Assembly: GCA_000505065.1 (NCBI GenBank) | Contig: AWSN01000001.1 | Coordinates: 385-64,384 of the forward strand | Direction of reading: 5' to 3' | Length of the DNA: 64,000 nt | Source: Parcubacteria bacterium RAAC4_OD1_1 | GTDB lineage: Bacteria; Patescibacteriota; Minisyncoccia; Phycocordibacterales; UBA9973 | Part shown: in pieces, positions 14,998 to 61,579 of the stretch | How positions within the stretch are numbered: position 1 is the stretch's first letter | How the letters are laid out: every line of letters begins with the position of its first letter | Notes under the pieces: generated by a model | What the model was told of the DNA's origin: nothing | The model's database searches: none | Seen by the model: the letters and a program-made list of their open reading frames with translations, nothing else | Translations under genes and position numbers: made by a program

Positions 14998-15056
14998 CCA
15001 TAGGTCCGACCTATGGACAAAGTTTTAAAATAAAAGCCCATAGGTCGGACCTATGG
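14998..15056. repeat. REP-3 doublet: two inverted copies of palindrome CCATAGGTC(C/G)GACCTATGG (14998-15016 and 15038-15056) separated by 21 nt (REPIN-like)
   Basis: The two units are reverse complements of each other, differing only at the central base. The stem CCATAGG/CCTATGG is shared with REP-2 at 61 kb. Confidence 0.6.
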
Positions 15057-15098
15057 AAACAAATAAAAATTCTCAAAGTAAGGCTTTGGGAAAATAAT

Positions 15099-36270: not shown

Positions 36271-36306
36271 ATCCCCACATCATCAAAGTTATCCACAATT
36301 TTTATC

Positions 36307-36350
36307 AAAATCACCATCAAAATCTATATGATTTTGATGGTGATTTTGAT
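36307..36350. promoter_or_regulatory. perfect 18-bp inverted repeat CAAAATCACCATCAAAAT-N8-ATTTTGATGGTGATTTTG abutting an extended -10 (TGATATAAT, 36349-36357) upstream of the giant gene; candidate operator
   Basis: Seen directly. Palindrome-to-ATG distance is about 19 nt. Confidence 0.4.
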
Positions 36351-36368
36351 ATAATATAATTGTATTTT

Positions 36369-39300
36369 ATGTTCAAAAAAGATAACAAATTAAAAGAAAA
36401 AATAAGTAAAATATTGCCACGTTTTTCTGTGCATTATGTTGCTTATTCTGTCTCATTTCTTTTTGTTGTTTTTTCTATTATTCACATTGTGTCTGCTACG
36501 ACTCCAAACCCAGGGCATCCTTGGAGTGAACTTGGTGATGGAGTCTTTTCTGTGACTTACAATCAGACTGCTCCACGTACTTATACATTTCCAGATGCAA
36601 ACGCAACTGTACTTACTACCAATGCCCCTGTGACTGTGGCTCAGGGAGGGACAGGACTTACAACAATTGCATCAGGATCAATCCTTGGTGCTAATTTAGC
36701 AAACACACTTTCTGCCATCACTTCTACAACAGGGACAAAAGTTCTTACAAATACAGATGGAACAATTAGTTGGGAAAATGAGCCAGACTCTATGGTTTAC
36801 CCATCTGCTGGGATTGCGGTTTCTACTGGCTCTGCATGGGGGACATCGATCACATCATCATCTCTATTAATTTCAAATATTTCAGATGAAGTTGGAACCG
36901 GGTATTTAGTCTTTAATGATTCACCATCTTTCACAACAAAAATTACAACACCACTTATACTCGGTGGAACTTCTACTACACAAGATTTATCTTTCCAAAC
37001 AACATCTGGTATTGGAGCAACAGGTGCTGATATGCATTTCAAAGTAGGGAATAATGGAGCAACTGAAGCGATGACGATTTTGAATAATGGGTATGTGGGA
37101 ATCGGGACGACGGGGCCAAGCGATAAGTTATCTGTAATAGGAGGAAATATTGCAATAGATGCTAGTTCAAAAATATATAATGGATCAGCTGCGGATAGTG
37201 CCGGTATAAGATTTCCAAGTTCTGTTACAGATATTGCTGGTTATAATGGAATAATATTTAGATCTAGCACAGTCGGAATAGCATCACAGACAGAAAGAAT
37301 GAGAATAACAAATACTGGCTCCGTCGGTATTGGGACGACGGCACCTACAGCGGTACTTCACCTAAAAGCAGGAACTGCAACAGCGGGAACTGCACCGCTT
37401 AAATTAACAAGCGGAGTAAATTTAACAACAGGAGAAGCAGGGGCAATGGAATACGATGGTGTAGAATTATATTTCACACCAAGTGGAACAACAAGAGAAA
37501 CTATTGCATATCTTTCTGATCTAACATCTGGATTAACTGGATATGTACCTTATACTGGTGCAACTACAAATGTAGATTTAGGGGTTCATAACTTAACTGT
37601 TGATACAAATACTTTGTTTGTTGATTCTGTGAATCATAGGGTGGGAGTGGGGACGACGACGCCAACTTATCTTTTGACTTTGAAAAGTCCAGCTTCTAAT
37701 ACAATATCTTTTTCTCTTGAAAAAACAGGAGCAACAACAACACCAGCATTGACTGCTTACGAGGGTTCTTCAACTCAAGGAGTAATGAATTTTTATGATA
37801 ACGGAAGTGCAATAGGAGCAAAAATACAAGGATATGGTGATTCATATTTTAACGGCGGCAACGTCGGAATTGGAACGACCTCTCCATTCTCTCCTGCATC
37901 AATAAATAAAGTGTTGAATATATACAAAGATACTGGTAGTGTTGGTCTTAATTTATCCGTTGGTCTTGAAGATTACGAAATAGCAAACGTTGCTGGTGAT
38001 TTGTGGTTTATAGATGATAATTCTACAAAAATAGTTGTAAAGAATACATCTGGCAACCTCCTCATTAACACTACAACCGACAACGGAGTTGACAAATTGC
38101 AGGTTAACGGCTCATTATCCACAGTAGGAAATGTGAGAGTTAATAAAAGAACAGATGCTTATAGGTATGTTGATATTTATAGTGATAATGTATATGGGTA
38201 TATACAAGTTAAAAGAGGAGATACAGATGCTGTAAGAGAATTAATTTTACAACCATCTGGTAGTTCTGTCGGTATCGGCACCACATCTCCCACCGCTGTA
38301 CTTCACCTAAAAGCTGGTACAGCCACCGCAGGCACTGCACCACTTAAACTAACAAGCGGAGTAAATTTAACAACAGGAGAAGCAGGAGCAATGGAATACG
38401 ATGGGACGGATCTTTTCTTTACCCCATCTACCACAAGAGAGACAGTAGCATTCTTGAGCGACATTACGGCTTCTGCTCATAATCCCGTCACTCTAGGTAC
38501 AGCAAACGGTCTCTCACTATCTACTCAACAACTCTCTTTAGCTCTAGCTTCTACTTCTACAACCGGTGCTCTTTCTTCTACAGACTGGAATACATTTAAC
38601 AACAAACAAGCAACTCTAGTATCTGGAACAAACATTAAAACAATCAACAGTGCTTCACTTCTAGGTAGTGGAGATATCGCTTTACAAACTCCACTTGTCG
38701 CTGATACTGATTACTTAACTCCAGGGACAGCAAGTTCTACGTATGCTCTTGCAACTAATGGTACATATTATATAGAAGGAACGGGGACTGTCGCTGGGAC
38801 ATGGCTCGGAAGTCATCCAAATATAACTTCGTATTATGATGGTTTGACTGTTCGATACTACACACCAATTGCTGGAGCTGCTACAACAACTTTAAATATA
38901 AATAGTCTTGGGGCCAAAACTATTTATTATGCTGGTGCAACCAAACTCACTACTCATTACCCAGCTTTGTCTGTTATTACTTTGACTTATTCTGCAACAC
39001 AAAATGGAGGGTCTTGGTTTGTTCAACCTTTTTATGCTGATGGGAATGAATCTTATACAGTTAGATGGAGCTCTACTCTTCAAGCCGGAGCTCCTATCTA
39101 TGATTACAAATTGGTAATGTTTGGAGCAAGTGATGGAAAAGTTTATCCTTTAACATTAGAAACAGGAACGGCTACAACGAAAACAGTTTCTAGTGTTGAA
39201 TTCAATCCAATGTCACCAGTTTTGTATTATGGTTCTACTACTGATATTGCTCTTGATGGAACATCTGCTTCTTATTGGTATGAAGGTGTGACTTCTGCTA

Positions 39301-42300
39301 ACTTACATTACACTGCAAACCAAGCTTCTGGGTGGACGGCATATACACCAATTTATATTAAAGGAACGATAACTTCTAGTGGAAATTTCTTACTAGCTGG
39401 AGCTGGAACTGTTGGCGGTACGGCTTTCTTAACTCAAACTCTTCCGACTACAGAAGATGGATTTGTTTATATGCTTTTGGGTCATACTTACAATACAACC
39501 ACTGCCTTTAGATTGACAACCAGCCATCCGATTTATGAATATAAAGGAGGAAAATTAAGACCATATACAAATGAAGCAGATACGTTAGATAGTGTCCTTG
39601 TAAGAGGAGCAACAACAGATGAGACCCCAACATTTTCAAATGCAACTTATTCAGCATTGTTTACGGGGGGAAATGTCGGGATTGGGACGGCGACACCAGG
39701 GGCGAAATTGCACATATCATCTGCAAGTGATAGTGATATTTTACTTGAAACGACAGGTACGAGCACAGGAGCAAGATTAAGATTAAAAAATTCTGCGAGT
39801 GAGTGGTATTTATACAACAATCAAGCAAATGGAATTTTGAAGTTTTATGCTGGAGCAGATAAATGGACTTTGGATACGAGTGGTAATGTTATACAAACAG
39901 GAAATTTGATAGTTCAGGGAACTGGGAACACAACAATAGCTGGCTCCGTCGGGATAGGCACCACCACTCCCACCGCTGTACTTCACCTAAAAGCTGGAAC
40001 TGCGACCGCAGGCACTGCTCCACTTAAATTAACAAGTGGAATAAACTTAACAACACCAGAAGCAGGAGCAATGGAATACAATGGAACAAGTCTATTCTTC
40101 TCTCCATCTACAACAAGATATCAAATACCATTTGCAACAGGAACAAATACAATATTCTTCACAACAACAGGAGCAACTAATGTCACACTTCCTACAACAG
40201 GAACACTTGCAACAACTGCAAATATTCCTACCGCTGCTAACCCATCAGCTACAATCGGACTCACAGCTGTAAATGGATCCGCTACAACATTTATGCGTTC
40301 TGATTCTGCTCCAGCTCTATCTCAAGCAATCGTTCCTACATGGACAGGAATACATACATTTAGTGCAATCCCTGCCTTCAACGGAGGAACATCTGGCTCC
40401 ACTGCTCCATTTAGTGTTGATTCAAATACTTTAGTTTCAAATTTGAATGCTGATTTGTTGGATGGACATGATACTGCATACTTCCAAACAGCACTTACGA
40501 ATCCTGTCACAGGGACGGGGACACTAAATTATGTTCCAAAGTTTACAGCTACAGGAACTACAATAGGCAACTCCTTAATTTTTGATAATGGAACGAATGT
40601 GGGGATTGGGACGACGACATTAACTGAAAAATTAACCATATCAGGAAATATAGATTTACCCGCTACTAATAATTGGAGGTATATTAAAAATTCTGCAACT
40701 AATGGTGGGCTTAGAATTGGTACAGGTAATAGTTCGGGGGTCTATACAGATGGTATAGAGGTTAGTTCTGGTGGCAGTTATGTTAAATTAAATCATAATA
40801 CGACAGTTACTGGAAATTTATATACTACAGGCAACGTCGGCATAGGGACGACGGCACCATTGAGTGCTCTAAATGTTGCAGGACTCACAGGAATTAATTG
40901 GGTAACTGCGGGCAATTCATATGGACTTGTTACTATTGGTACGCAAGGCACAATGGGAGGTGCTTTGTGGGTCAATACACCATCACTAAACGCCAGTAAT
41001 GCATCAGGTTTGGGAATAACTGGTTCATATGATGCCTCAAAAGTTTCTGTAGTTAATGTTAATGCGTATGGAGTGTATGCTGCTACCTACGGCTCAGCAT
41101 TAGCATTTTCAACTTCTAACGGAACTGCTTTGTCAGAGTGGATGAGAATTGATAAAAACGGCAACGTCGGGATTGGGACGACAAACCCATCAGCAAGATT
41201 AACTATTCAAACTGCGAATGCATCTTCTACTGGTGGTATTCGATTATTAGGAATAACTACTCCTACTGATATAAGTTATTGGGGGGAAACAGAATTGGCG
41301 ATGCAGTATGGTGGTGTTTATAAAAATGTAATTAATAATAATGGGGTTTCTTATTTTAATGGAGGTAACGTAGGAATTGGAACGACCTCACCAACAGCAG
41401 CTCTTCATTTAAAAGCCGGCACCGCCACCGTAGGCACTGCACCACTTAAACTAACCGCAGGTACAAACCTCACTACCGCTGAAGCAGGGGCAATGGAATA
41501 CGATGGGACAGATTTATTCTTTACTCCATCTACAACTAGAGAAACAGTAGCATTTATGAGCGATCTAACATCTGGGTATATCCCTTACACAGGAGGAACT
41601 TCAAATGTAGATTTAGGAGCTCATAATCTTACAGTAGATACAAATACATTATTTGTAGATAGTGTGAATCATAGGGTGGGGGTGGGGACTACTTCACCTG
41701 CTTACAAACTTGATGTGAATGGAGTTATGAGATTATCAACAACCACAGGTGATGTCTTTAGACTAGAAGGAAGCACCACTAATGGATATACAGATTTATT
41801 ATTTACTGGTAATGGAAATAATAATTATATATATAGTTTTGGTAGTTCTTATACTACAAATGGTAGATATGTTGGTGGCTCACAACTTATTGATGCTACT
41901 GGTTCTGGTGGTTTAGGTTTGGCAGCTTCAGCAACAGCAGGGACTATAAGATTTTATACTAATGCAAATAATGAGAGAATGAGGATAGATTCTTCTGGCA
42001 ACGTTGGTATTGGGACTACAACGCCAGACGGAAAATTAAACATAAGTAATGGTAGTATGAATACTTCTCGTGAGTCTGTAAACCATTATAGAGATGTAAT
42101 ACATTATAGTGGTGCTGCTTCTGTTACAGGAACGATGCAGATTACTATGCCATCAACAAAATTATGGTCTAATACAATGATGACAGTAACTATTAAGGGG
42201 TATAATTATAGTGCCCATGGAGCATGGGAAGCTGTTATTTCTGGATACAATTATAGCTCTACTTCACAGTGGTATAATTATACCGCTGAAATTAAAGGTA

Positions 42301-45300
42301 AAGCTCCATTTACTTCTATTAGACTTGCAAGTAATGGCACGAGTAATGTTATTTTACTTGGCACAACAACTACAGTTTGGGTTTATCCAAAAATAGAAGT
42401 CACTGATGTGATTACAGGCTATAGTAGTAATACAGGTTGGGGAGAAGGTTGGTCTATTACTCCAATTATAGATGAAGCTGCAATTGTAAATGCTGTTACT
42501 CCAACTATTCCGTATTTCTTAAATAATGTAGGCAATCTTGGGATTGGAACGACGACGCCGGGTACAAAACTTGATGTTGTGGGTGGTGCAATACGAACAG
42601 ACAATCAATTAATTTCTACAATTGTTACGGGGACATCTCCACTTTCTGTTGCTTCAACAACTTTAGTTTCTAATTTGAATGCAGATTTGTTGGATGGATT
42701 GCATGCTTCATCGTTTGTTACTTCTAGTAGTATTTCAGGAACACAAAATTATGTTTCTAAATTTAATGCCGCAGGGACGGGAGTAGTTAATTCACAGATT
42801 TTTGATAATGGAACGAATGTGGGGATTGGGACGACCAATCCTGATAGTTTTCTTGATGTAAGTGGTAGTGCTTCGGGAGGTAAAAGTCTTAGATTAAGAA
42901 GTGGTGATTCAGCAGGTACTCCTGCAGATTCTACTCAAATTCTTTTTTCTTATGGAGGAACTAATGAGTATTCTCATAATATAAGAACAAGACATGACTC
43001 TGGAGCTGCGGCTAACAATGCAATCGATTTTTATACATGGAATTATGGAGTAGATACATCTACTACAACAGGAACAAAACACATAATGACATTAGGTGGA
43101 ACAGGTAATGTCGGGATTGGGACGACGAGTCCACAGGCAAAATTGCACGTTTCAGGGAATTCATTTTTAGGTACATATTATGCAAACAATACAGCTATTA
43201 CTGATGCAGAAGTTATTACTGCTGGAGAAAATAAAATACTTAGTAATTTAACAAGAGGTAACTTAGATATAACAATGACATCTGTTCTTAATCCTGCTCC
43301 TGACTATGGTGCTTCTTTAACTTTTACTACTAATGCAGGTAATTATGGTACCGGTTATTATTATGTTGGTGGAGCTATTAAAACAGGTAGAACGAGTGGT
43401 GCTAATCAAAACCAAGCGCAATACATGTCGTTTTATACTAATAATGGTACTTCTTTGAGTGAAAAATTAAGAATTACACATGATGGCAACGTCGGAATTG
43501 GGACGACAAGTCCAGAAAGTATTTTACATCTTAGTAAGAGTGCCGCTGGCACATCAGGTCCTATTTTATTCTTAGATAATCCTTCTGCTTCTACTCTTGG
43601 TAGTTCTAGTGATATTAATTTTGCAACTTGGTCTGGAGAGTCTGCTACTACACCTGGAGCAAAAATAAGTTTAGTTAACACAGCGGCTGGAAGTGGTGCT
43701 AATGCTTTTACTTTTTATACTAAAAATACAAGTGGAGTTGTCGCAGAAAGAGTTAGGTTTGATTCACAGGGTAATGTCGGAATTGGAACGACGGGGCCGG
43801 GTACAAAACTTGATGTTGTGGGTGGTGCAATACGAACAGACAATCAATTAATTTCTACAATTGCTACGGGGACATCTCCACTTTCTGTTGCTTCAACAAC
43901 TTTAGTTTCTAATTTGAATGCTGATTTGTTGGATGGGATTAGTTCTACAAGTTTATTTAATAATATGGGACAAAATCATTCAGCACAAACAGATTTTAAT
44001 TCTATAACAGATTTTGGTACAAGATTTGTACAAGGTATTACAAATGGACCAGGGACAGGTTCATCACAATTTTATAGTTTGAATCTTGGCTTGGGAAATG
44101 ATTATGCATTTAGTTCATATGCAATGCAAATTTCAATTCCTAGATATACTGGAACTGATAAATATATATCATTTAGAACAAGAGAAGCTGGAGTATGGGG
44201 AACTTGGTCAAAAATAAGTGCAGGATATGCAGATACAGCAGGAAATGCAGATACTGTGGATGGATTACATGCGAGTGCATTCCAAACAGCACTTACGAAT
44301 CCTGTCACAGGGACGGGGACATTAAATTATATTCCAAAGTTTACAGCTACAGGATCTACAATAGGCAACTCCTTAATTTTTGATAATGGAACGAATGTGG
44401 GGATTGGCACAGCAACACCTAATCAACAACTTGAAATTACTAAAAACTTTAGATTGCCCGCCACCACTTATAATGCTGGTTCTCCCTATGGAATAATTTA
44501 TAAAGATGGGAATAGGTTTATTCACGACTTTAATTACGGAAATAATGGGACAGTGACGACTGCTGGACAGAATACTTTTATAGGTGTTAATGCTGGGAAT
44601 TTGACTATGGGTAGTACTGCTACATCAGTTTCCCATTCGTCATATAATACAGCGGTAGGTTATGTTTCTCTCTATTCCAACACCACAGGATACGCTAACT
44701 CTGCTATGGGGCATTATTCTCTTTTTGCTAATACCACAGGATACGCTAACTCTGCACAGGGGGTTAATTCTCTCTACTCCAACACTGGAGGATACAATAA
44801 CTCTGCTGTGGGATATTATTCTCTCTATTCCAACACTACAGGAAACCACAACTCCGCAATGGGTGTTAATTCTCTCTACTCCAATACTACAGGCTGGTAC
44901 AACTCAGCATTAGGTTATCAAGCAGGAAGATATATTGCTGATGGAACAACAGGTAGAACTACAGGTAACAACGGACTATATCTCGGATACAATTCTAAAG
45001 CTAGTGCAGATGGGACAACTAATGAAATAGTGATAGGGTATAATACTATAGGTGCTGGAAGTAATACCGCTGTCTATGGTAATACTTCAATGACTAAGCA
45101 TATATTTAGTAATGGTAACGTCGGTATTGGGACGACAAGTCCGGGGGCTATTTTATCTTTAGGTAGTTCTGCTGCTTATCAAAAGCTTTTAGTTTTTGAA
45201 TCTGGAAATACAAAAGCTGGCTTCGGACTTACTCCAACTGGAGATTTTAGATCTTTTACTCCAACAGGGACTACTTTGTCTTTTGGTCATATGTCTACTA

Positions 45301-47501: not shown

Positions 47502-47558
47502 TTATTAGAATAATTTATATAATTCCTATTTTGATGTTGGTATAGTATAATCATAAAT

Positions 47559-50500: not shown

Positions 50501-51293
50501 TGAAAATTATATGGATGTATCTTATGATACTGATATTTCTTTTAAAGATAATTTTTATTCAAATGATGGAGTTGCTTTTACAAGCAATGCTCTTGATCCG
50601 ACAGTCGCAGGAACTATCGTAAATCAATCATATGTAGAATCAAATCCTTCAACTAATTTATCTGTTATTAATATTGGTCAATATGGTATGTGGGATTTCT
50701 CTTTGTATGATAAAAGTGTAAGCAATAGTAGCTCTTATTGTTTAAGAGTTGTTAAAGCAAATAATGAACTTTTAGATACTTATTCTTTTATCCCAGAAAT
50801 AACGACAGCTGTATATAGAAGCCGTGGAGGCGGAATCAGGCATATTGCAAATCCTTTATGTATGGATGGTATAGATAATGATTCAGATACATATATAGAT
50901 GGAAATGATTCGAATTGTCATATTAATGGGGTTTTAAGTAATAGTTATATTACTGATTGGAATTCTGAGACTGTTTCCCCTGTAATAGCAGAAGGAGGAA
51001 CTGTAGATGGAGGAGAAGAAGTTACTTTACCAGCTTGTAGTGATTGGATAGATAATGATTCTGATACTGATATAGATAATCTTGACCCAGGTTGCCACTT
51101 AGATGGTAATATAAATAATACTTACATTCCAGAACACAATTCAGAAACTGTCGCTCCTGTTTCAAATACAGGAGGAACTTCCGGAGATGATTCTGGTGAT
51201 CTTGGTTATTTAAATAATAAATTAATATTTCAATTTACTTCTTTAAAGAATCTCAAAAATTTATTACTCGCGATGGTTTTAAGACCCTTTTAA
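47559..51293 (+). CDS. 1244-aa N-anchored Thr/Ser/Gly-rich surface protein with a roughly 230-aa poly-Gly-rich block and two C-terminal Cys-flanked DxDxD (Ca-binding-like) modules
   Basis: Gly block ...GGGGGTENNNAAVGGGGAGG...SGSGGSGIVIIRY (about 49590-50260). Repeated C(M/S)D(G/W)IDNDSDT(Y/D)ID..D..CH(I/L)(N/D)G...NSETV(S/A)PV at about 50850-51170. Confidence 0.7.
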   Translation: MFYQNKKLKRKIFKNIKIGIFVFSFMFTSLFSYLPNLNTNEVKVAEAYVGTRVKTVEFFAGQYASSTLANAGVQNNFEVQNVEISETNVDIINSYIEFSAQVGANASTTITEGLLYFSACAGTSCTPATPAMVMNTAGLGTSTGESQTIRLRTNIATAGTDTDIFSTFTGGAFSFQVGYCIDGASGTDGSTCNGTVAASIQSANAKLVTTYTYDDTSTYQTNTVIYPLESNTTGPVGSKTIVQASCTMDSNCPKFSYNTNIPELSSQVSQFFHTQFFGGSVSTTTDHQFQAQVDGNTSGSTMYFEQALSDNGGAMDYLVSGLDGYENNTAQQLETRVNGNAYVLGGENYVTYKYPNSAGVKTKTIVLPVGEVQTVGSITKSSLVGPTVKFPETGVSIKKAWFRVHTSAGGQTTASNLNITTKVGSNTESLATAYSIGGTLEGVSDDGYFIHMIPSSDYSHLETANIDTGIPVQMSAQWSTPYGAVSGELVITYTYTGDTNGFNTTQRLFAGQSTTTASTTFSAPTGAVGGIVDPYIYQGIGNASILGVSLKMDGKDTSATANQTVGANMSVYPNACTSSDTFNSTTLTDTQITKVSLFKEITGVVTNNNTTTYTPCYNSSQATIFNGTVAITTMVDFREVVASGGTETTINVGGIDYKVHTFLSSGTFTVTSGGGIEYLVVGGGGGTENNNAAVGGGGAGGVLTGSTSTDAGSYSITVGSGGLGYFGGTPGQGQQGGSSSIGSLVVATGGGASNSLPNGGSGAGGTAYSSSYGPGGTGIAGQGYPGGAASATRRAGGGGGASQAGGNSGINNYGGDGGDGIQSSINGTATYYGGGGGGAGYTTNGQGDGGLGGGANGSYGAPTSNQNGTPNTGGGGGGSKLFSSTVRSGSGGSGIVIIRYPMSTEPSFSQLDYRFFENEDGNFVYSSLGSQNTNVSLSQSGEDFRLRMLLKIENYNMTVEKSHFKLQFSEKSGSCDTSFVGENYMDVSYDTDISFKDNFYSNDGVAFTSNALDPTVAGTIVNQSYVESNPSTNLSVINIGQYGMWDFSLYDKSVSNSSSYCLRVVKANNELLDTYSFIPEITTAVYRSRGGGIRHIANPLCMDGIDNDSDTYIDGNDSNCHINGVLSNSYITDWNSETVSPVIAEGGTVDGGEEVTLPACSDWIDNDSDTDIDNLDPGCHLDGNINNTYIPEHNSETVAPVSNTGGTSGDDSGDLGYLNNKLIFQFTSLKNLKNLLLAMVLRPF

Positions 51294-51324
51294 AATTTCT
51301 TTTTTAAAAGTATAATATATATGT

Positions 51325-51747
51325 ATGAAAAGAAATAAATTAATAAATTTTCTTTTAGTTTTTGTTATCATTGGGGTTCTTTCTCTGGGAGGATATTTTT
51401 ATTATAAATTAAATCAATTAGAAAAAGATACAAATATAAGTGGAGACAAAGAGATTAAGAGTCTTATCTTAAAAGTAGAAAGATTATATTTAATTCCAAA
51501 TGATGAAGTCCCTACGATTGCCACAGTGACAGATCCTAAAATACTTAAAGACAAGTCTTTTTTTACTCTAGCAGAAATAGGGGATAAGGTCCTTATTTAT
51601 ACAAAGTTTGGTAAGGCTATACTCTATAGACCTAGTATAAATAAAATTGTTGAAGTTGTTTCTGTTGGTATTGATAATAAATTAGATTTTAGTAAAAGTG
51701 AGAACGTTGAAAATCAAGAAGAAATAGATAATAAAGATGATGAATAA
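51325..51747 (+). CDS. small N-anchored hypothetical protein (140 aa)
   Basis: Single N-terminal TM, acidic C-terminus. Confidence 0.45.
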   Translation: MKRNKLINFLLVFVIIGVLSLGGYFYYKLNQLEKDTNISGDKEIKSLILKVERLYLIPNDEVPTIATVTDPKILKDKSFFTLAEIGDKVLIYTKFGKAILYRPSINKIVEVVSVGIDNKLDFSKSENVENQEEIDNKDDE

Positions 51748-52723
51748 TTTATTTAAAAATATTTTTATAAAAATTTCTGTATTTTTAGTTTTATTTTTAC
51801 CACTTCATTCTTTTGCAGTTCTTTCTTGCTCTATTACTACTTCTGCTTTGTGTTCAGGGACGGTACTTCTTCGTATGTCAAGTAGTGACAATGCTCACGC
51901 TGAGCTCCCAAGTGAATCTACGATAGTTTATGATAATAATGTGGTTTGTTGTACAGGAGTGCCACAACTTTCAAATTCTTGTGCTGAATCTAATAAAGAA
52001 ATTTTTGCAAAATTATCTGGAGTGACGAATGCTCACGTAGAAGAAAATACACAATCAAATTATGTAAACAATGCTTGCATAGCTAGTACTTATGCTGGAG
52101 ATGAGATCACAGTAGGGTACCAGCCAAATGATTGTACTGGGTACGACACAATACTCTTTTCAATGTCTAATACTCCTACGAATTCTCAAGTAGGATCTCC
52201 GTCTTCATATAATAATAAAGTTTGTGCAAAAGTTTTTACGCAATCTATAACATTTAATATAAGTAATTATTCTGCTGGATTTGGGTATCTTTCTCCTTCG
52301 GGGATAAGATATGCTACTTCTGATGGGTTGGGTAGTTCTGTGGAAACAGAAGCTTACAATGTGGATATTAGCACCAATGCTTCTTCTGGTTATACTTTGT
52401 ATGTAAGAGGAGATACTTTAAAGAATGGATCTTATACTATAGATCCTATAGGTGGAACCAACATAACACCATCTCCTGGGTCAAATGCTTTTGGATTAAG
52501 AGCTGTAGCGACAGGGGGCAATGGTATAGTTTCTTCACCTTATGATGGGACTGGTTTTGCTTATGATGCTACAAATGCTACTCCCTCTGAGATAGGTTTT
52601 GCTACTTCGGGGAATGGTTTAAATACAGATTATTCTATTAGGTCTGTGGCCACTATTGATGATATTTTAAACTATGGTCTTTATTCAACTAACCTTACTT
52701 ATATAGTTGTCCCCAACTTTTAA
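51737..52723 (+). CDS. secreted Cys/Ser/Thr-rich hypothetical protein; contains a half REP-1 copy in frame (51901-51917)
   Basis: Signal peptide. TGAGCTCCCAAGTGAAT encodes AELPSE. Confidence 0.5.
   Translation: MMNNLFKNIFIKISVFLVLFLPLHSFAVLSCSITTSALCSGTVLLRMSSSDNAHAELPSESTIVYDNNVVCCTGVPQLSNSCAESNKEIFAKLSGVTNAHVEENTQSNYVNNACIASTYAGDEITVGYQPNDCTGYDTILFSMSNTPTNSQVGSPSSYNNKVCAKVFTQSITFNISNYSAGFGYLSPSGIRYATSDGLGSSVETEAYNVDISTNASSGYTLYVRGDTLKNGSYTIDPIGGTNITPSPGSNAFGLRAVATGGNGIVSSPYDGTGFAYDATNATPSEIGFATSGNGLNTDYSIRSVATIDDILNYGLYSTNLTYIVVPNF
51901..51917. repeat. partial REP-1 (TGAGCTCCCAAGTGAAT), identical to the right half plus flank of copy 4
   Basis: 17/17 match to 33539-33555. Confidence 0.6.
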
Positions 52724-52820
52724 AAATCTGTGGATAACTATATTTTTAAATATTTATTTGTGATATAATACAAGTGTATAATTTATTTTGTTATTTTATT
52801 ATTAATTAATTTATTCAAGT

Positions 52821-53948
52821 ATGATTAAAAAAATTGTTAGTCTCGTAGTTATGACTTCTTTTGTTTTAACTATGACAGGAGTTTTTCCTCTTACCTTGAT
52901 GGCTGCATCTATATCTTCTTCTAAGGCAACATTTGGTAGGTTGAAGGCCTCAACTCCTTCTGATTCTGTTATTATTCAGTTTGTTTCTCCAACGGGGATA
53001 CAGACAGGTGGTGCAGATACCATCTCTTTAACTTTTTCCTCCGATTTTACAGTAGCTCCTGAAGCTGTTGCTAATTTTGATGTAGGACTTGGAAATAGTG
53101 GAGTATGTTCTTCTGCTACATATACAGATGAAATAATTTCTTTGACTGCTTCTGCTACTGACTGGGGAGTTGACGTGACGGGCAATGTTATAACTTTTAG
53201 TCCAGAGACTGATGATGTTTTAACTGCTGGATATTGTATTAGGATTGAAATGGGGACGGCTGCTACAACAGGTGGGGCAGGCTCGGCAAGTACAATAACA
53301 AACGGACTAGCTGACGATGACGATACTATCACAATAGCTGGTGGTTTTGGAGATACTGGAGTTATGACTGTAGATATAGTAGATGATGATCAAGTGACAG
53401 TTACAGCAACAGTGAATCAAACAATGACTTTTGATCTAGATACTTCAGTTACAGATAGTGAGACAGATGCACCTTATACTGTACCACTTGGAGTTCTCTC
53501 TTCTTCATCTGTTAAAGTTTCAGGATCTACCGATTCTGTAAATATGATAATTGCAGAAGGTAATACAAATGCTTCAGGAGGTATGAATGTCACAGTTAAA
53601 AATGCTAATGGGGCAAATGGTTTAGTTTCAACTTCTACTCCAGCTGATAGAATAGAAAGTGCAACAGGCACAATGATAGCAGGGACAGAGAATTATGGTC
53701 TTTGCGTAGCTTCTGCTTCTTTGGCTGGTTTTACTAGAGCAACTGCTTATAATACAAATTGTGCATTAAACTCAGAGACAAATGCCATAATAGGTCTTAC
53801 TACAACCACTGCAGATTTGCTAACATCTTCTGCTCCTATATCAAGTGCTCATGCTGAAATAGTAGTAAACGCTGCTATTGCTGGAGCAACACCTGCACAT
53901 ACAGATTATACAGATACACTTACATTTATCGCTACTGCAAGTTATTAA
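52821..53948 (+). CDS. secreted Thr/Ser/Ala-rich hypothetical surface protein (375 aa)
   Basis: Signal peptide MIKKIVSLVVMTSFVLTMTGVFPLTLMAA. Low complexity. Confidence 0.5.
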   Translation: MIKKIVSLVVMTSFVLTMTGVFPLTLMAASISSSKATFGRLKASTPSDSVIIQFVSPTGIQTGGADTISLTFSSDFTVAPEAVANFDVGLGNSGVCSSATYTDEIISLTASATDWGVDVTGNVITFSPETDDVLTAGYCIRIEMGTAATTGGAGSASTITNGLADDDDTITIAGGFGDTGVMTVDIVDDDQVTVTATVNQTMTFDLDTSVTDSETDAPYTVPLGVLSSSSVKVSGSTDSVNMIIAEGNTNASGGMNVTVKNANGANGLVSTSTPADRIESATGTMIAGTENYGLCVASASLAGFTRATAYNTNCALNSETNAIIGLTTTTADLLTSSAPISSAHAEIVVNAAIAGATPAHTDYTDTLTFIATASY

Positions 53949-53964
53949 TCGCAAGAGATTTATT

Positions 53965-54990
53965 ATGTCAAAAAAATTAATTTTAAGGTTGCTAATACTT
54001 GTTTTTGTCCTTGCCTTAGGTGGTATTTCGAAGTCTCAAGCTATGACCATAACTCCTGTTAGATACGAACTTTCTGGTAATAAAGGTGATACAGTTTCCA
54101 AAGAAATAACCTTGATTAATGATGATGATGCTCCTGTTGTTTATTATTCTTCTTTTGCAAATTTTGAAGCTCAGGGTGAAAGTGGTAGTGCTGCTTTCAT
54201 AGAGAGACCCACAGAAGGCATAGGGACTTGGATGAGGACAGAAAGATCTGTCACTGTGTATCCTGGTGAACAAAAAACAATTGACTTTAGTATAGATATA
54301 CCAAATGATGCAGAATCAGGGGGTCACTTTGGTGTTATTTTTTGGGGGACATCTCCAGAAGATGTTGAAGACAATAAACAGCTTGCTGTTAGTGCCAAGA
54401 CCGGTCTTATCGTTTTGCTTTCTGTAAATGGAGATGTAAAAGAGGCTGGGGGACTTATTGAATTTGATACAAAAGATAGTAAATTTTGGTACAATACACT
54501 TCCTGTAAACTTTTATTATAGATTTAGAAATGATGGAGGTGACAGAATTAAACCAGAAGGGAAAATAAAAATTAAAAGTTTTTTATTTATTCCTGTTAAA
54601 AAGATAGATGCTAATCCAATGGATGGTAATATCTTACCAAATAGTACTAGAAAGTTTTCTATTGATTGGGTGAAATACACAAGACCAAAAGATAATGAAC
54701 CTCGTGAAGGATTAGTTGGTTTGTTCTTTGACAAAGTTGTTTATCAATGGAAAAATTTTGCTCTTGGTATTTATTCTGCTAAGTTAGATATAGCTTACGG
54801 TACACAAAATGAAAAAGCTGAAAAGGTTGCCTATTTCTTTGTTTTTCCTTGGCAACTATTTATATGTTTAATAATAATAATTATCATTATTTTTATTGGT
54901 GGTAAAAAATTAATCAAGAAATACAATAGCTATATAATAAATAAAGCTCATTCTCAAATGCAACTACCTACAAATGAGAACCATGTTTAG
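53965..54990 (+). CDS. cell-surface protein with signal peptide and C-terminal TM anchor (DUF916-like architecture)
   Basis: MSKKLILRLLILVFVLALGGISKSQA signal. C-terminal ...FFVFPWQLFICLIIIIIIIFIGGKKLIKK. The track start at 53878 is a TTG extension. Confidence 0.45.
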   Translation: MSKKLILRLLILVFVLALGGISKSQAMTITPVRYELSGNKGDTVSKEITLINDDDAPVVYYSSFANFEAQGESGSAAFIERPTEGIGTWMRTERSVTVYPGEQKTIDFSIDIPNDAESGGHFGVIFWGTSPEDVEDNKQLAVSAKTGLIVLLSVNGDVKEAGGLIEFDTKDSKFWYNTLPVNFYYRFRNDGGDRIKPEGKIKIKSFLFIPVKKIDANPMDGNILPNSTRKFSIDWVKYTRPKDNEPREGLVGLFFDKVVYQWKNFALGIYSAKLDIAYGTQNEKAEKVAYFFVFPWQLFICLIIIIIIIFIGGKKLIKKYNSYIINKAHSQMQLPTNENHV

Positions 54991-55876
54991 CAAGATTTCA
55001 ATTAAGAAAATAACTATCTTATTTGTTTTAGTTTTTTTTTCGTGTCAAATTTTTGCTGATGATATAATTTCAAATATTTCTATTTCTGCTATTGTAAATC
55101 CAGTAGATGGAGGAGGTGGTGGAGGTGGCGGTGGCGGAGGAGGCATACATATACCCACAGTAGTTAATTTTTCTGGTATGGCTTACCCAATGTCTCGAGT
55201 TTTTATTTTAAAAGATGGTAAAATGGCGGTTAGCACAATAGCAGATATTAATGCGAATTTTTCTGTTTCTATTTCAAATCTTTCTACAGACACTTATAAT
55301 TTTTCTGTTTATGGAGAAGATACAAATGGAAGAAAATCATCTTTTTTTACATTTCCAGTATATATAACATCTGGGACGACTGTAAATATTGGTAATATTT
55401 TTCTTTCTCCAACTATAGATATTGATAAAATAGAAGTTAAAAAAGGTGACAATTTGGCTATCTTTGGTCAAAGTGTACCCAATAGTGAAATTACTATTTT
55501 GATCTCTTCTGGAGTAGAATATTTTTTTAATGTAGCATCAAATAATTTTGGAGCATATTTATACAATCTAGATACTTCTATTTTAGAATTAGGAAAATAT
55601 CAAACTAAATCCAAATCAACTATTTTTAATCAGATAAGTCCTTATTCTAGTCCACTTTCATTTATTGTTGGGCATATAAATAGAAAGAATGAATTACCAA
55701 ATTGTTCTTCTTTGCGAGGTGATTTAAATTGTGATAATCACGTGAATCTTATAGATTTTTCTATTATGGCGTATTGGTATAGAAAAGAAAATCCATTACC
55801 AAGAGTAGATCTTAGTAACGATGGCAGGATAACTTTAGTTGATTTTTCTATAATGGCATTTAATTGGACTGGTTAG
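54974..55876 (+). CDS. secreted protein with poly-Gly linker and C-terminal dockerin-like domain
   Basis: Signal peptide. G12 run (55115-55150). C-terminal duplicated Ca-loop/helix segments DLNCDNHVNLIDFSIMAYWY ... DLSNDGRITLVDFSIMAFNW fit the dockerin DxNxDGx(I/V)xxxDxxxh repeat pair. Confidence 0.55.
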   Translation: MRTMFSKISIKKITILFVLVFFSCQIFADDIISNISISAIVNPVDGGGGGGGGGGGGIHIPTVVNFSGMAYPMSRVFILKDGKMAVSTIADINANFSVSISNLSTDTYNFSVYGEDTNGRKSSFFTFPVYITSGTTVNIGNIFLSPTIDIDKIEVKKGDNLAIFGQSVPNSEITILISSGVEYFFNVASNNFGAYLYNLDTSILELGKYQTKSKSTIFNQISPYSSPLSFIVGHINRKNELPNCSSLRGDLNCDNHVNLIDFSIMAYWYRKENPLPRVDLSNDGRITLVDFSIMAFNWTG

Positions 55877-55900
55877 TAAATTAGCAAAATAATTAAAATT

Positions 55901-56779
55901 ATGAAAAAAATATTTATATTATCTATAATAATATCATTAGGGATCTGTCTTAAAATAGAAGCTTCTTCTTTATTTTTAGATTTATCAAAAGAAGAAGTTT
56001 CTGTGGGTGAACAATTTTATGTTGATATTGTGCTAGATACACAAGGTAAAAGTATAAATGGTATTAATTCTAGTTTTTCGTTTAATAATGATTTATTTAG
56101 ATTAGTTAGGATAGAGGATTCTAAATCAATGATAAACTATTGGATAGATAAACCAAGTGATAATAATTCTGGCAGGATTGATTTTTCTGGTATAATAGTA
56201 AATGGATTTGATGGAGTGATAGATCCTTTTAATTTAGAAAATAAACTTCCAGGAATTATTTTAAGAATAGTTTTTGAGCCTTTATCTTCTGGAACTCATT
56301 CGTTTGATCTTTATGAAGCATCGGCTACATTAAATGATGGTAATGGGACGATTCTTGATTTAGATGATAATCATTTGTCTATTAATATTTTAGATTCAAT
56401 AAAAGATATTTCTATTCCAGTAGAATCAAGCACTCCTCAAATCTCATTTGAAATTATTAAAGAAAAAGATCTTTATGATAATAAATATGTTATAATTTTC
56501 AATGCGACAGACGAAAGTTCTGGGATTCGTGAAGTTTTAATAAAAGAAGGTTTTAGGAAATGGAAGCAAGTTGAGAGTCCGTATTTATTGAAAGATCAAT
56601 CAAGAAAGAGCAAGATAGTTTTAAAAGCAATCAATTTAACTGGTGGCTCTATGGAGCTTAAGATTGATCCAGTATATAAGAATAATATATCGATTTATTT
56701 ATTATCTATATTTGTCATTCTTATTTTGTTTTTAGTTTTTATAAAATATGTCAAGAATAAAAAACAACAGCCTTTATAA
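55901..56779 (+). CDS. membrane-anchored protein with one cohesin-like domain
   Basis: Signal peptide. About 140-aa module VSVGEQFYVDIVLDTQGKSINGINSSFSFNNDLFRLVRIEDS...SGRIDFSGIIVNGFDG...GIILRIVFEPLSSGTHSFDL...ATLNDGNGT resembles type-I cohesin. C-terminal TM ISIYLLSIFVILILFLVFIKYV. Confidence 0.5.
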   Translation: MKKIFILSIIISLGICLKIEASSLFLDLSKEEVSVGEQFYVDIVLDTQGKSINGINSSFSFNNDLFRLVRIEDSKSMINYWIDKPSDNNSGRIDFSGIIVNGFDGVIDPFNLENKLPGIILRIVFEPLSSGTHSFDLYEASATLNDGNGTILDLDDNHLSINILDSIKDISIPVESSTPQISFEIIKEKDLYDNKYVIIFNATDESSGIREVLIKEGFRKWKQVESPYLLKDQSRKSKIVLKAINLTGGSMELKIDPVYKNNISIYLLSIFVILILFLVFIKYVKNKKQQPL

Positions 56780-58784
56780 AGTATTTATATCTTCATTTTT
56801 CGTAGCCTTATTCTTTTTGAGTTACAATCAAGCTTTTTCTGCTGATATAAGAATGGTGTCTACTTTTCATAATTATAAGGTGGGTGATACTATAAAAATA
56901 AATGTAAATGTAAATAGTAAGACTTCTGTTAATGCAGTTTCTGGTGTTATAAATTTTCCGACAGATAAAGTCTCACTTTCTAGTGTTTCTAAAGATGACT
57001 CTATTATAAGTTTGTGGGCCAAAGATCCTGTTTTTTTAAATGATAATGATGGAAGTATCTCATTTGAGGGGATTATTTTAAATGGATTTATAGGTAAAGA
57101 AGGACAAATTTTAACTCTTAATTTTAAAGCTAAAAAAGAGGGAACGGTCAATATTTATTTTAATTATGCTTCTGTTTTAGCTAATGATGGTAATGGATCT
57201 GAAGTTGTTGAAGAAAAAAAATCAATAACTATAAACATAAAAGAAACATTTATTGTGCTTGGTGAAAAATTATCAGAAGCACAAATAGAAGAAGGATCTA
57301 AAGATGAAATACTTAAAATAGTTGAAATACCTAAAGAAGCTATTTTGAAAATAAGAAAAATTGAAGAGATCAACAAAATTCCAGTTAACAATCTTGTTAT
57401 TTTATTTGGTTTGTTGGTTATCCTTATTTTATTTTTAATAATAATATATGGGATATATTATATTTCTAAATTTAAAAAGTATATAAGAAAAAGGTTTTTT
57501 ATTTTTATATTTCTGTTTTCTTTACTATCACCATTACCATCTTTTGCTAATGATATAATAAATCTAAATGCCCCTTCTCTTTTACCAAGGTCAGAATTAT
57601 TTATTTCTCCTCGAACTGGTGATTTTATCGTTGGCTCTACTTTTGATGCTCCCATATATATAAATACTCTTGGAAATGATGTAAATGCTATTAGTGTCAA
57701 AATAAAATTTGACCCGAGAAAACTTTCTATTATAAGACCATCGGGAGGAAAATCTATTTTTGGTATTTGGGTAGAACCTCCTAGTTATGATAATCAAAAA
57801 GGGACAGCTAGCTTGGTAGGGGTTATCCCTGATGGTATAGTTTCTAGTTCTGGTCTTGTGGCTACTATTACTTTCAAAGTTTTATCTTCTGGGGATACGA
57901 ATGTATTTATATCAAATGATTCGAGTGCTAATATGAATGATGGATTAGGGACTCCAGTACGTTTGAGTTTGGGTAATGCATATTATAATTTTACACCAAA
58001 GATTCCAGATGGAGTTCTTGTCTTTTCCGATACACATCCAATGGAAGGTCATTGGTATAATAACAATTCTCCAATTATAAGATGGGAAAATAGTGATACG
58101 ACAGAAGGGTTTAATGTAATTCTTGATAATAATCCTAATACCATTCCTTCGACATCTATACTAACAACAAATTCATCAATTTCATATGAAAATTTAAAAG
58201 ATGGAGTGTGGTATTTGCATGTTAGAGAAAAGAATAAAGAAGTATGGGGGAATCCTTCTCATTTTCAAATAAAAATAGATACAAACAAACCCGCATTATT
58301 TAAACCAGAAGCTAGTATTTTAGAAGAGATTTCTGGGACAAGAAAGTATTCACTTTCTTTTGTCACTACCGATTCATTATCAAATATAAGCCATTATGAA
58401 GTTGGAACCATTGAAAAGAAAAATGAAATAGAGATTGCTTCACCAGTTTTTATTGAAACCGAGAGTCCTTATATTGTACCAAACACTACAGAAGATAGTA
58501 TGAGAGTAATAGTTCGAGCTTTTGACTTTGCTGGTAATATGCAAGAAGCATATGTAGATCTTTATCCAGGATATACTTTATTTAAAAGTTTTAAAAAATA
58601 TGGAGCATATTTACTTGGATTTTTAGTAATATTTATGCTATTTGAGCTTCTATTCCATTATCTTTTTGGGCACCATATTTTGTCTCACGTAAAGAAAGCC
58701 TATTATTACTTCAAGGGAATGTCTGATTATCCCAAAGAAGAAGAAAAACCGACAGAAGAATCTGTAAATAATATTGATAAATAA
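56748..58784 (+). CDS. membrane-anchored protein with two cohesin-like domains and a C-terminal TM segment
   Basis: Modules at about aa 30-150 (YKVGDTIKINVNVNSKTSVNAVSGVINFPTDKVSL...GSISFEGIILNGF...GQILTLNFKAKKEGT) and about aa 270-400 (GDFIVGSTFDAPIYINTLGNDVNAISVKIKFDPRKLSI...GTASLVGVIPDG...ATITFKVLSSGDT). Internal and C-terminal TM segments. Confidence 0.5.
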   Translation: MSRIKNNSLYKVFISSFFVALFFLSYNQAFSADIRMVSTFHNYKVGDTIKINVNVNSKTSVNAVSGVINFPTDKVSLSSVSKDDSIISLWAKDPVFLNDNDGSISFEGIILNGFIGKEGQILTLNFKAKKEGTVNIYFNYASVLANDGNGSEVVEEKKSITINIKETFIVLGEKLSEAQIEEGSKDEILKIVEIPKEAILKIRKIEEINKIPVNNLVILFGLLVILILFLIIIYGIYYISKFKKYIRKRFFIFIFLFSLLSPLPSFANDIINLNAPSLLPRSELFISPRTGDFIVGSTFDAPIYINTLGNDVNAISVKIKFDPRKLSIIRPSGGKSIFGIWVEPPSYDNQKGTASLVGVIPDGIVSSSGLVATITFKVLSSGDTNVFISNDSSANMNDGLGTPVRLSLGNAYYNFTPKIPDGVLVFSDTHPMEGHWYNNNSPIIRWENSDTTEGFNVILDNNPNTIPSTSILTTNSSISYENLKDGVWYLHVREKNKEVWGNPSHFQIKIDTNKPALFKPEASILEEISGTRKYSLSFVTTDSLSNISHYEVGTIEKKNEIEIASPVFIETESPYIVPNTTEDSMRVIVRAFDFAGNMQEAYVDLYPGYTLFKSFKKYGAYLLGFLVIFMLFELLFHYLFGHHILSHVKKAYYYFKGMSDYPKEEEKPTEESVNNIDK

Positions 58785-61075: not shown

Positions 61076-61513
61076 ATGATATACAAAGAAAAACCAAAAG
61101 ATTTTACTCCAGATATTGAAGTAGTTGCTTGTTTGGTTGAATTTGATAATAAATTTATTTTATTACATAGACAAGACAACAAGATTCATGGTGGTAAATG
61201 GGGACAACCAGCAGGGAAGGTTGATCCATCAGATTTAAATAGTTTTGATGCTATGGTAAGAGAATTAAGAGAAGAAACTGGGATAATTACCCAAAAAGAG
61301 AATTTGATTTTTTATAAAACTTTTTTTGTTTCTCACCCAGACAGAGATTTTCTTTATCATTACTTTGTTCTGCATCTAAAAGAAAAACCAGAGATTGTTT
61401 TATCAAAAAACGAACACAAAGATTATCTTTTAGTAAAAGCAGAAGAAGCTCTCTGTATGAATTTAATCCCTGATGAGGATTATTGTTTAAAAGATTATTT
61501 TGGTATTAAATAA
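61076..61513 (+). CDS. NUDIX hydrolase
   Basis: Nudix box GGKWGQPAGKVDPSD...MVRELREETGI. Confidence 0.8.
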   Translation: MIYKEKPKDFTPDIEVVACLVEFDNKFILLHRQDNKIHGGKWGQPAGKVDPSDLNSFDAMVRELREETGIITQKENLIFYKTFFVSHPDRDFLYHYFVLHLKEKPEIVLSKNEHKDYLLVKAEEALCMNLIPDEDYCLKDYFGIK

Positions 61514-61528
61514 ATTCTTTAATTATAA

Positions 61529-61554
61529 TTAGCCATAGGCCTTGCCTATGGCTA
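61529..61554. repeat. REP-2 copy b (same orientation as a)
   Basis: TTAGCCATAGGCCTTGCCTATGGCTA, 26 nt upstream of RAYT-2. Confidence 0.8.
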
Positions 61555-61579
61555 GAGATCTTTATATAATATAGGATAT

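Follow-up and report, generated by a model that had tools for sequence, protein, structure and literature searches.

A probably composite surface-attachment locus in a Nomurabacteria genome, with a pilus module resembling the Pam system of the Candidate Phyla Radiation

Pam pili and the region between pheT and gyrB

The Pam pili of the Candidate Phyla Radiation (CPR) constitute the closest described counterpart of the locus considered here, which lies between pheT and gyrB in a 64,000-nucleotide stretch of the genome of Parcubacteria bacterium RAAC4_OD1_1, a member of the Nomurabacteria (the whole stretch, positions 385 to 64,384 of contig AWSN01000001.1, is called the window below). These pili first became known in 2026, from a single cultivated parasite, Ca. 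Mycosynbacter amalyticus of the Saccharimonadia (Troman et al., bioRxiv 10.64898/2026.03.03.709456). In that account, the pilins consist of two domains joined by a conserved donor strand; PamC and PamD are chaperones like those of chaperone-usher systems, with a C-terminal transmembrane (TM) helix; PamT is the tip pilin; and PamR is an RbmA-like anchor that has a TM helix and an additional strand at the N-terminus. The founding members of the Pam pilin model form filaments solved by cryo-electron microscopy (cryo-EM), and pam neighborhoods contain a central tail-fiber-like protein and ATP-synthase genes. Prevalence is highest in Saccharimonadia and Microgenomatia; Paceibacteria are found nowhere in the text, and neither cohesin nor dockerin is mentioned (10.64898/2026.03.03.709456).

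The window has a GC content of about 30% and is CPR/Patescibacteria sequence. By exact matches of its proteins it was assigned to contig DPIZ01000003.1 of GCA_003543255.1, recorded as Candidatus Nomurabacteria bacterium. As a preliminary description of this DNA had stated, the region is bracketed by pheT and gyrB: by Pfam, pheS and pheT end at 36270 (pheT, 34333-36270), and gyrB (58885-60981) bounds the region on the 3′ side. Between them lie nine open reading frames (ORFs), designated G1 to G9, in agreement with the nine gene calls of the source record; the earlier count of 11 is replaced by nine, or by ten if G9 is split into the two genes that its relatives carry. All are on the plus strand, as described, although co-orientation weighs little because almost every gene in the window is on that strand. 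An N-terminal hydrophobic signal or anchor segment is present in all nine products, again as described, and additional C-terminal TM helices are found in G6 and G8. The Gly-rich protein, docking module and cohesins of the preliminary description were likewise recovered, as Gly_rich_2 in a 1,244-aa protein (G2), Dockerin_1 in G7 and Cohesin in G9. Little sequence separates the genes, several of which overlap; composition across the region shows no break except the higher GC of repeat-rich ORFs.

This region is probably a composite surface-attachment locus, not a single operon. Its core, G3-G9, is likely to be a Paceibacteria-type variant of the CPR Pam pilus, a system that has itself already been described. 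The suggestion that the region encodes a surface attachment apparatus is supported by the conserved order of the G3-G9 module and its match to the Pam pilus, by the synteny that links a giant gene to it, and by a cis motif that the G1 and G5 promoters have in common. Two other possibilities were rejected. A sortase-assembled pilus is not indicated, as neither an LPXTG sorting signal nor a sortase was found in the region; and a replication origin is not indicated, as cumulative GC skew climbs monotonically through it. Pfam finds no Usher or PapC domain in the nine proteins.

The pilus module

Synteny was followed in seven distinct relatives (L002/3, L004/5, L006/7, L025, L026, L027 and L069). 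The order of the module, (G3)-(G4-like)-(one to three G5-like)-G6-G7-G8-(G9a)-(G9b), is the same in all relatives examined, at protein identities of 30-80%; L025 reproduces the entire bracket from pheT to gyrB. Scattering of the genes among relatives, an outcome that the preliminary description had named in advance as speaking against a common apparatus, is not seen. Even the small membrane protein G3 has orthologs of 132-140 aa at the same position in L002, L005, L025 and L027.

The direct connection to Pam comes through the pilins. G4 combines a Cys-rich N-terminal domain (8 Cys) with a Pam-type C-terminal acceptor domain; of the NCBIfam Pam models (NF058579/NF058581), NF058581 (CPR_Pam_pilin_C) matches residues 200-328 at 59.1 bits, against a cut-off of 55. 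Pilins from corresponding places in the relatives exceed that cut-off too: 69.7 bits in L027, 59.1 in L006 and 57.9 for the 378-aa protein o378 of L069. The last of these aligns over its full length with G5 (BLAST E 6e-16) and also with the C-terminal domain of G4 (E 3e-14); direct BLASTP of G4 versus G5 is not significant. A profile comparison of G4 with G5 that reached 99.8% was discarded as circular, because the alignment included a G5-like sequence. Searches of PDB sequences with G4 and G5 returned nothing relevant. No PamT-like single-domain tip pilin is present in the window: G4 has two domains and scores 14.4 bits with the PamT model, whose cut-off is 240; L027 encodes a PamT-like protein of 246 aa (60.9 bits).

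G5 has the layout expected of a Pam-type major pilin. Its AF2 model, built with 45 homologues, has a mean predicted local distance difference test score (pLDDT) of 88.8, with an N-domain at 30-186, a linker at 190-197 (pLDDT <50) and a C-domain at 200-375. The strand that links the domains, DDDQVTVTATVNQ at residues 188-200, is conserved: windows in the linker rank second and fourth in conservation, and D188, D190, V192, A196 and V198 are invariant. A like pattern is reported for the Pam donor strand (10.64898/2026.03.03.709456).

G6 would be the chaperone. Two beta-sandwich domains and then a C-terminal TM helix make up its model (pLDDT 82.4); among full-length structural matches WxLIP is the best, and seven chaperones of chaperone-usher systems match over both domains. 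A PapD/FimC-like chaperone fold on a C-terminal TM helix, as described for PamC and PamD, is found in G6. The family is large, with 9,257 representatives at E≤1e-3 and 928 clusters (50% identity) at E≤1e-30.

A working scheme can be drawn from these features. All components would be exported by Sec; G6, held by its C-terminal TM helix, would cap the incomplete immunoglobulin (Ig)-like C-terminal domain of the pilins; G5 would polymerize by donor-strand exchange, the linker strand VTVTATVN filling the groove of the neighboring subunit; and G4 would be a minor or tip subunit.

The same genes might instead specify a non-filamentous surface complex of the WxL type, in which G6 is a WxLIP-like tether that holds G4 and G5 monomers by strand insertion. 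WxLIP does have the architecture of G6, with two Ig-like domains and a C-terminal TM segment, and a beta-hairpin insertion into its partner is predicted for it. Yet no gene has a Pfam match to WxL, DUF916 or DUF3324 (E≤1 for G4 and G5, E≤0.01 for G6); G4 itself and relatives of G5 match the Pam pilin model, with its filament-forming founders; and the linker strand of G5, together with the same motif on G7 (see below), is explained by strand donation from subunit to subunit. The WxL-type complex is thereby rendered distinctly unlikely.

Several results nevertheless tell against placing the module with Pam. Neither G5 nor its 45 aligned homologues match the NCBIfam Pam models, and at E≤10 there are no Pam hits for G5, G6, G8 or G3; G6 in particular finds no Pam chaperone model there. 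The profiles of G4 and G5, when compared without bridging sequences, resemble each other weakly (probability 12%, E 0.0025). Foldseek, with the G5 model against the PDB, retrieved only generic two-Ig adhesins from a set devoid of Pam structures, and for that reason gives no direct structural comparison with Pam. The fold matches of G6 (RbmA, WxLIP, PapD-like) fail to distinguish a chaperone from a PamR-like anchor. Finally, no ATP-synthase domain was found in 20 further ORFs scanned at 0.3-33 kb, a few small ORFs being left out.

A candidate dockerin adaptor and membrane cohesins

What holds such a filament to the cell may be encoded immediately downstream. G7 comprises, in order, a signal peptide, the strand ISISAIVN, a run of 12 Gly, an Ig (Big_6) region and a type-I dockerin. 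The pattern [IV][STC][IV][STC]A.V occurs just twice in the 128,000 residues of the six-frame translation of the window: once in the G5 linker and once at the mature N-terminus of G7. The same translation contains only two dockerin-type calcium loops, DLNCDNHVNLID and DLSNDGRITLVD, both in G7, which is the sole dockerin-bearing protein of the window. Strand, Gly/Ser linker and both dockerin loops are conserved in seven G7 orthologs. Among the best 120 homologues of G7, the strand motif is present in 77, a Gly/Ser run in 92 and the two dockerin loops in 115; in a control family, the strand motif is present in none of 120.

Candidate partners for a dockerin follow at once. The two cohesin modules of G9 score 29.1 bits (G9a) and 40.5 bits (G9b), against a cut-off of 24.1. 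Homology to the G9a cohesin family was detected by hhalign in the N-terminal domain of G8 (99.8%, E 1.6e-29). TM anchors are found on G8 and on both halves of G9. G9 itself joins in frame what L004 and L025 keep as two genes, which overlap there by 4 nt and have products of 311 aa and 449 aa. Around the junction (near residues 235-268, about 57450-57550), the product of the first gene lacks its cytoplasmic tail, and the signal peptide of the second has become an internal TM segment.

From these sequence features and from synteny, we infer for G7 the role that PamR has in the Pam system. The strand at its N-terminus would plug the last pilin, as proposed for PamR, with the polyglycine run as a tether; and G7, which has no TM helix, would dock by its C-terminal dockerin on the cohesin modules, three in all and membrane-anchored, that G8 and G9 carry. 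That is, a Pam-like pilus would probably be anchored through a cohesin-dockerin module. No link of cohesin or dockerin to CPR pilus loci was found in the literature.

On the other side of the balance, the G7 dockerin is only marginally over its cut-off (Dockerin_1, 23.1 bits versus 22.9). For G8, Pfam Cohesin gives E 0.02, with none of seven orthologs hit at 0.01, and the cohesin assignment is one of profile transitivity. There is also a mismatch in number, with three cohesin modules to a single dockerin.

The giant and glycine-rich proteins

The two large genes that precede the module are more variable. G1 has no assigned Pfam domain; it matches PHROG tail-fiber families at E 5e-38 and 1e-21. 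An N-terminal TM anchor is followed by a conserved juxtamembrane module of about 100 aa (TPNPGHPW...RTYTFPDANAT...VAQGGTG), which is nearly invariant in 10 relatives; the sequences diverge beyond it. The remainder is repetitive, with 20 GIGTT motifs, four copies of a module of about 45 aa and several repeat families (regular-expression count), and there is a weak match to H_lectin (H-type lectin; E 0.007) near the C-terminus. G2 matches Gly_rich_2 (E 3.5e-23) and phrog_2295 (E 1e-53), and carries two acidic double-disulfide repeats (acid_disulf_rpt, 42.3 bits versus a cut-off of 41). At this position G2 was not found in the relatives examined. The place that G2 has in the window is taken, in four relatives, by a Beta-lactamase2-family gene situated after the giant gene and before the pilus genes: L002 (1762-2754), L005 (2870-3877), L025 (6030-7043) and L027 (7543-8562). 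The window has no such gene. G1, giant and membrane-anchored, and G2, glycine-rich, would serve as accessory adhesins that vary among relatives.

Whether they belong with the pilus at all can be questioned. G1 and G2 might be independent adhesins that happen to stand beside a pilus operon in a compact genome, so that only G3-G9 form a functional unit. L026 has the pilus module without the giant gene, which also counts against the composite locus; a Beta-lactamase2 gene replaces G2 in the four relatives just named; G1 and G2 have promoter-like sites of their own; and neither a pilin domain nor a donor-strand motif was detected in either protein. Against this, the giant gene precedes the module in L002/L003, L005, L006, L025 and L027, and a TTATCCACA box is common to the G1 and G5 promoters (see below). 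Moreover, in L069 the protein o576 (7351-9081, minus strand) carries a domain 46% identical to residues 906-1083 of G2, fused to a Pam-type pilin C-terminal domain; this Rosetta-stone fusion hints that G2-type domains may work with the pilus or be displayed on it. A tail-fiber-like protein is, in addition, central in the published pam neighborhoods. Independence of G1 and G2 is the most serious of the competing accounts, and still an unlikely one.

The tail-fiber matches invite a further explanation: that G1 and G2 are remnants of a prophage tail-fiber module. The phage-family E-values given above are its support. However, both proteins bear N-terminal anchors or signal peptides, the region contains no further phage genes, 11 of 12 species keep the position after pheT, the promoter being conserved, and composition is unbroken apart from the repeat-rich ORFs. 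Anchors, fixed chromosomal position and the lack of other phage genes together argue against a prophage remnant, which has very little probability.

Promoters and a DnaA-box-like motif

The preliminary description saw one co-regulated apparatus under a palindromic operator. The conserved elements upstream of G1 are of another kind. They were compared in 13 loci, the window and 12 GTDB species-representative loci (L008-L019) retrieved as encoding relatives of the G1 N-terminus; pheT lies upstream of the G1-like gene in 11 of the 12. When 12 upstream regions are aligned, AAAGTTATCCACA stands out as invariant, as does TG.TA.AAT with the leader ATAGTTGTATTTTATG; the palindrome belongs to no invariant block. 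The first block contains the 9-mer TTATCCACA, found exactly, 66-86 nt 5′ of the G1-like ATG, in 11 of the 12 relatives and with one mismatch in L016. The G1 -10 element (36347-36355) fits TGNTANAAT in each of the 12 relatives aligned, 10 of which have TGATATAAT itself; the leader, only about 12 nt long in G1, is nearly invariant.

Exact intergenic copies of TTATCCACA number only two in the 64-kb window (36289 and 52730), and both are in this region, the second being inverted in front of G5. The inverted box recurs in relatives: 86 nt 5′ of the G5-like gene in L002/3 and L004/5 (L002 8773, L004 1342), and 5′ of the G5-like gene of L025 (9765), where part of the intergenic sequence reads as a string of Ns. 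Boxes with one mismatch precede the G5-like gene in L026 (TTATACACA), L027 and L006, and the distant L069 has a plus-oriented box before its G5-like gene (about 7330). The spacing from box to -10 is 22-58 nt, and both orientations are seen.

The consensus of the DnaA box is TTATNCACA. TTATCCACA matches it perfectly and is the canonical 9-mer; the variant in L026 still falls within the consensus. The box is probably a transcription-factor site, and DnaA is the only known candidate to bind it. Its presence in both the G1 and the G5 promoter suggests co-regulation, as indirect support and by way of an element other than the palindrome: the two promoters would be governed through the common box. 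No report linking the TTATCCACA motif to CPR was found in the literature.

G2 and G3 have a TATAAT 8-9 nt 5′ of the ATG (47545-47561 and 51308-51327) and no Shine-Dalgarno sequence, which suggests that their transcripts are leaderless or nearly so. Promoter-like -10 sites are thus found before at least four genes (G1, G2, G3 and G5); the region is therefore not one operon, and transcription would start at several extended -10 promoters. A generic sigma-70 promoter scan was uninformative, because it gave fewer sites than in shuffled sequence.

Metagenomic sequence was scanned for a box, 38-62 nt and TGATATAAT. The matches listed were mostly unrelated; L056 and L069 were informative. Also among the matches listed, four unrelated metagenomic contigs (L028, L029, L034 and L045) have GTTATCCACA, 38-62 nt and TGATATAAT before ORFs that look DnaA-like at the N-terminus by eye, as would suit a genuine DnaA box at those places; others have the cassette of box and -10 before giant ORFs (L078, 2,583 aa; L096, 1,775 aa) and before an ORF with a type IV pilin-like N-terminus (L036). 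Noisy as the scan is, there is a hint of a wider surface-gene regulon under this cassette. In L011 (2776-3003) and L017 (2759-2982), the stretch from pheT to the G1-like gene contains two tandem cassettes (box, about 50 nt, TGNTATAAT); no more than a mini-ORF of 4-9 codons comes after the first, which may be a duplicated promoter or specify a small RNA.

The palindrome downstream of pheT

The palindrome itself is real. The perfect 18-bp inverted repeat of the preliminary description is exact, with CAAAATCACCATCAAAAT at 36306-36323 (plus) and 36331-36348 (minus), and it is longer than had been noted: perfect 22-nt arms (36303-36324 and 36330-36351) flank a 5-nt loop, and 25-nt arms match at 96%. 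Two matches of this kind occurred in none of 100 shuffles. The element begins 33 nt past the pheT stop, and its RNA hairpin is predicted at -33.6 kcal/mol (z = -8.4). It overlaps the promoter, as claimed, the 3′ arm covering the TG of the extended -10 of G1, TGATATAAT.

On the operator account, a dimeric regulator bound to the palindrome CAAAATCACCATCAAAAT over the promoter represses all the genes as a single transcription unit. Besides its exactness, high non-randomness and position against the -10, the palindrome contains two direct copies of ATCAAAATC per arm, four sites in total; compared with its counterpart in L008, it shows two compensatory double substitutions, which preserve the symmetry, along with two broken pairs; and the short gaps and several overlaps between genes would suit a single transcript. 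Conservation speaks otherwise. A strong hairpin (z -3 to -11) lies between box and -10 in eight of the 13 loci, the window included, and is lacking in five (L011, L014, L015, L016 and L017), although box, -10 and leader are retained there. At the position of the palindrome, L009, L010, L012, L013, L018 and L019 have unrelated A-run/T-run hairpins (AAAAAACAGTA..., AAAAAGTACGC...), and palindrome-related sequence is found only in the nearest relative, L008, among the 12. As regards sequence, then, the palindrome is absent from orthologous promoters, which had been set beforehand as an outcome unfavorable to the operator. The half-site has no further copy in any promoter of the window; -10 elements stand directly 5′ of G2, G3 and G5; and hairpins directly follow stop codons at many other genes in the window. 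With G2 not conserved as well, the claim of a single unit under a palindromic operator is not supported, and the operator account is improbable; an operator function confined to the source species and L008 is conceivable.

Since the hairpin sequence is variable or absent and hairpins after genes are common, the palindrome is read as a structural element, most likely the terminator or insulator hairpin of pheST, which abuts the G1 -10 by chance. One result is at odds with a terminator: a scan for such elements passed over the palindrome for want of a T-run after the stem. In the relatives' hairpins, tracts of T6-7 form part of the 3′ arm.

Two further observations concern inverted repeats. In L011, L014, L015 and L017, which are relatives without the big hairpin, the -10 is itself flanked by a perfect inverted repeat, ACAACTAT-GATATAAT-ATAGTTGT, just 5′ of the G1-like ATG (for example, L014 2965-3002); this repeat is a better operator candidate than the palindrome of the window. 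Intergenic palindromes with CCATAGG/CCTATGG recur in the window at 14995-15059, 61511-61573 and 61840-61888, one of them with perfect 22-nt arms, and may be a family of repeats of this genome resembling repetitive extragenic palindromes.

Table 1. Features of the pheT-gyrB region, in window coordinates
Feature	Position	Strand	Remarks
DnaA-box 9-mer TTATCCACA inside AAAGTTATCCACA	36289..36297	+	18 nt past the pheT stop, 80 nt 5′ of the G1 ATG
Palindrome	36303..36351		Perfect 22-nt arms, 5-nt loop
Extended -10 TGATATAAT, leader ATAATTGTATTTT and G1 ATG	36347..36371	+	12-locus alignment
G1	36369..47501	+	3,710-aa tail-fiber-like giant surface protein
G2	47559..51293	+	1,244-aa secreted or anchored Gly-rich protein; TATAAT 8 nt 5′ of the ATG
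G3	51325..51747	+	140-aa single-pass membrane protein; overlaps the start of G4
G4	51737..52723	+	328-aa candidate minor or tip pilin
Second exact box GTTATCCACA, inverted	52729..52738	-	5 nt past the G4 stop, 22 nt 5′ of the G5 extended -10
Extended -10 TGATATAAT of the G5 (major-pilin) promoter	52761..52769	+	Sequence
G5	52821..53948	+	375-aa candidate major pilin, two Ig-like beta domains
G6	53965..54990	+	341-aa membrane-anchored candidate chaperone, two domains, PapD-like/WxLIP-like (PamC/D analogue)
G7	54974..55876	+	300-aa candidate secreted adaptor
G8	55901..56779	+	292 aa: signal peptide, cohesin-like domain, second beta domain, C-terminal TM anchor
G9	56748..58784	+	678 aa, two cohesin modules, three TM-like segments

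Other features of the window

Elsewhere in the window, the 23S rRNA match at 8651-12086 extends over 3,436 nt, as compared with 2,925 nt for the model, which implies insertions of about 500 nt. A 5S gene lies at 12198-12305 and an L10 leader at 5378-5504; there is no 16S gene in the window. An ORF for an IS200-like Y1 transposase (220 aa; 32865-33527) is directly 5′ of pheS. The segment 20786-23734 may be an integrated element: it encodes a large serine recombinase (22412-23734, minus strand) beside two ORFs without a family match, and GC skew is locally inverted.

Implications

If the module belongs with Pam, then Pam-like pili extend to Nomurabacteria and Paceibacteria, and a divergent but recognizable version may be widespread there, as the 928 clusters of the chaperone family alone suggest. 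The adaptor with donor strand and dockerin, the membrane cohesins presumed to receive it, and the DnaA-box-like motif common to the giant-fiber and pilin promoters would likewise be new. The anchoring model could explain how a filament is retained on the cell without usher, sortase or outer membrane. The TTATCCACA box would be a first cis-regulatory candidate for surface organelles here, no such motif having been reported in the literature found.

A more far-reaching proposal, doubtful as it stands, combines these elements. In Paceibacteria, a soluble ‘plug-and-dock’ adaptor, G7, would take the place of the TM subunit, with its donor strand capping the last pilin and its dockerin engaging membrane cohesins; and a conserved DnaA box, perfect in sequence, would govern the two main promoters of the organelle, those of giant fiber and major pilin. 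If this were true, it would be the first case of a cohesin-dockerin pair serving as a pilus anchor, and expression of the attachment apparatus would be coupled to replication or cell-cycle status in an episymbiont.

Comparison with known systems

DnaA-box promoters are familiar from the autoregulation of dnaA and from DnaA-controlled genes in Bacillus subtilis. The likeness lies in the perfect 9-mer TTATCCACA at both sites in the window; the difference is that here a single box stands before surface-structure genes, at variable spacing (22-58 nt) and in either orientation.

In the WxL/WxLIP (DUF916-DUF3324) clusters of Firmicutes, WxLIP shares with G6 the Ig-Ig-TM architecture and a predicted strand-insertion mode. 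A difference is that WxL proteins have been described as monomers attached to peptidoglycan and not as filaments.

The chaperone-usher systems (Pap/Fim, archaic Csu and CFA/I) offer a further comparison. The fold of G6 is like that of PapD, FimC, CsuC and CfaA, and that of the pilins is like CsuA/B and CfaB; donor-strand complementation followed by exchange would be common to both. Here, however, a membrane anchor holds the chaperone, and the pilins are two-domain proteins whose donor strand is placed between the domains instead of at the N-terminus; there is no usher and no outer membrane. To our knowledge, CPR bacteria in general lack an outer membrane.

With cohesin-dockerin systems, both cellulosomal and non-cellulosomal, the locus shares neighboring genes for Cohesin modules and for a type-I dockerin whose two calcium loops are canonical. 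It differs in that there are no glycoside hydrolases or carbohydrate-binding scaffoldins here; the cohesins are on small TM-anchored proteins, and the only dockerin is on an Ig protein with a pilin-like donor strand.

The closest likeness is to Pam, in a locus known here from its genes alone. Both systems are CPR-specific and, as far as can be predicted, exported by Sec without an usher; both have two-domain pilins with an Ig-like C-terminal acceptor domain and a conserved donor strand between the domains, a PapD/FimC-like chaperone on a C-terminal TM helix, a terminator subunit (here the candidate G7) with an extra N-terminal strand, and a tail-fiber-like gene nearby. They differ in host, here Nomurabacteria/Paceibacteria; in the major pilin family, here too divergent for the NCBIfam models; and in having one chaperone, not two, and no PamT-type tip pilin in the window. 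No single protein in the region combines the features of a PamR-type anchor, that is, an RbmA-like pair of fibronectin type III domains, an N-terminal strand and a C-terminal TM helix. The part played by the TM anchor of PamR would here be divided between a dockerin adaptor and three membrane cohesins.

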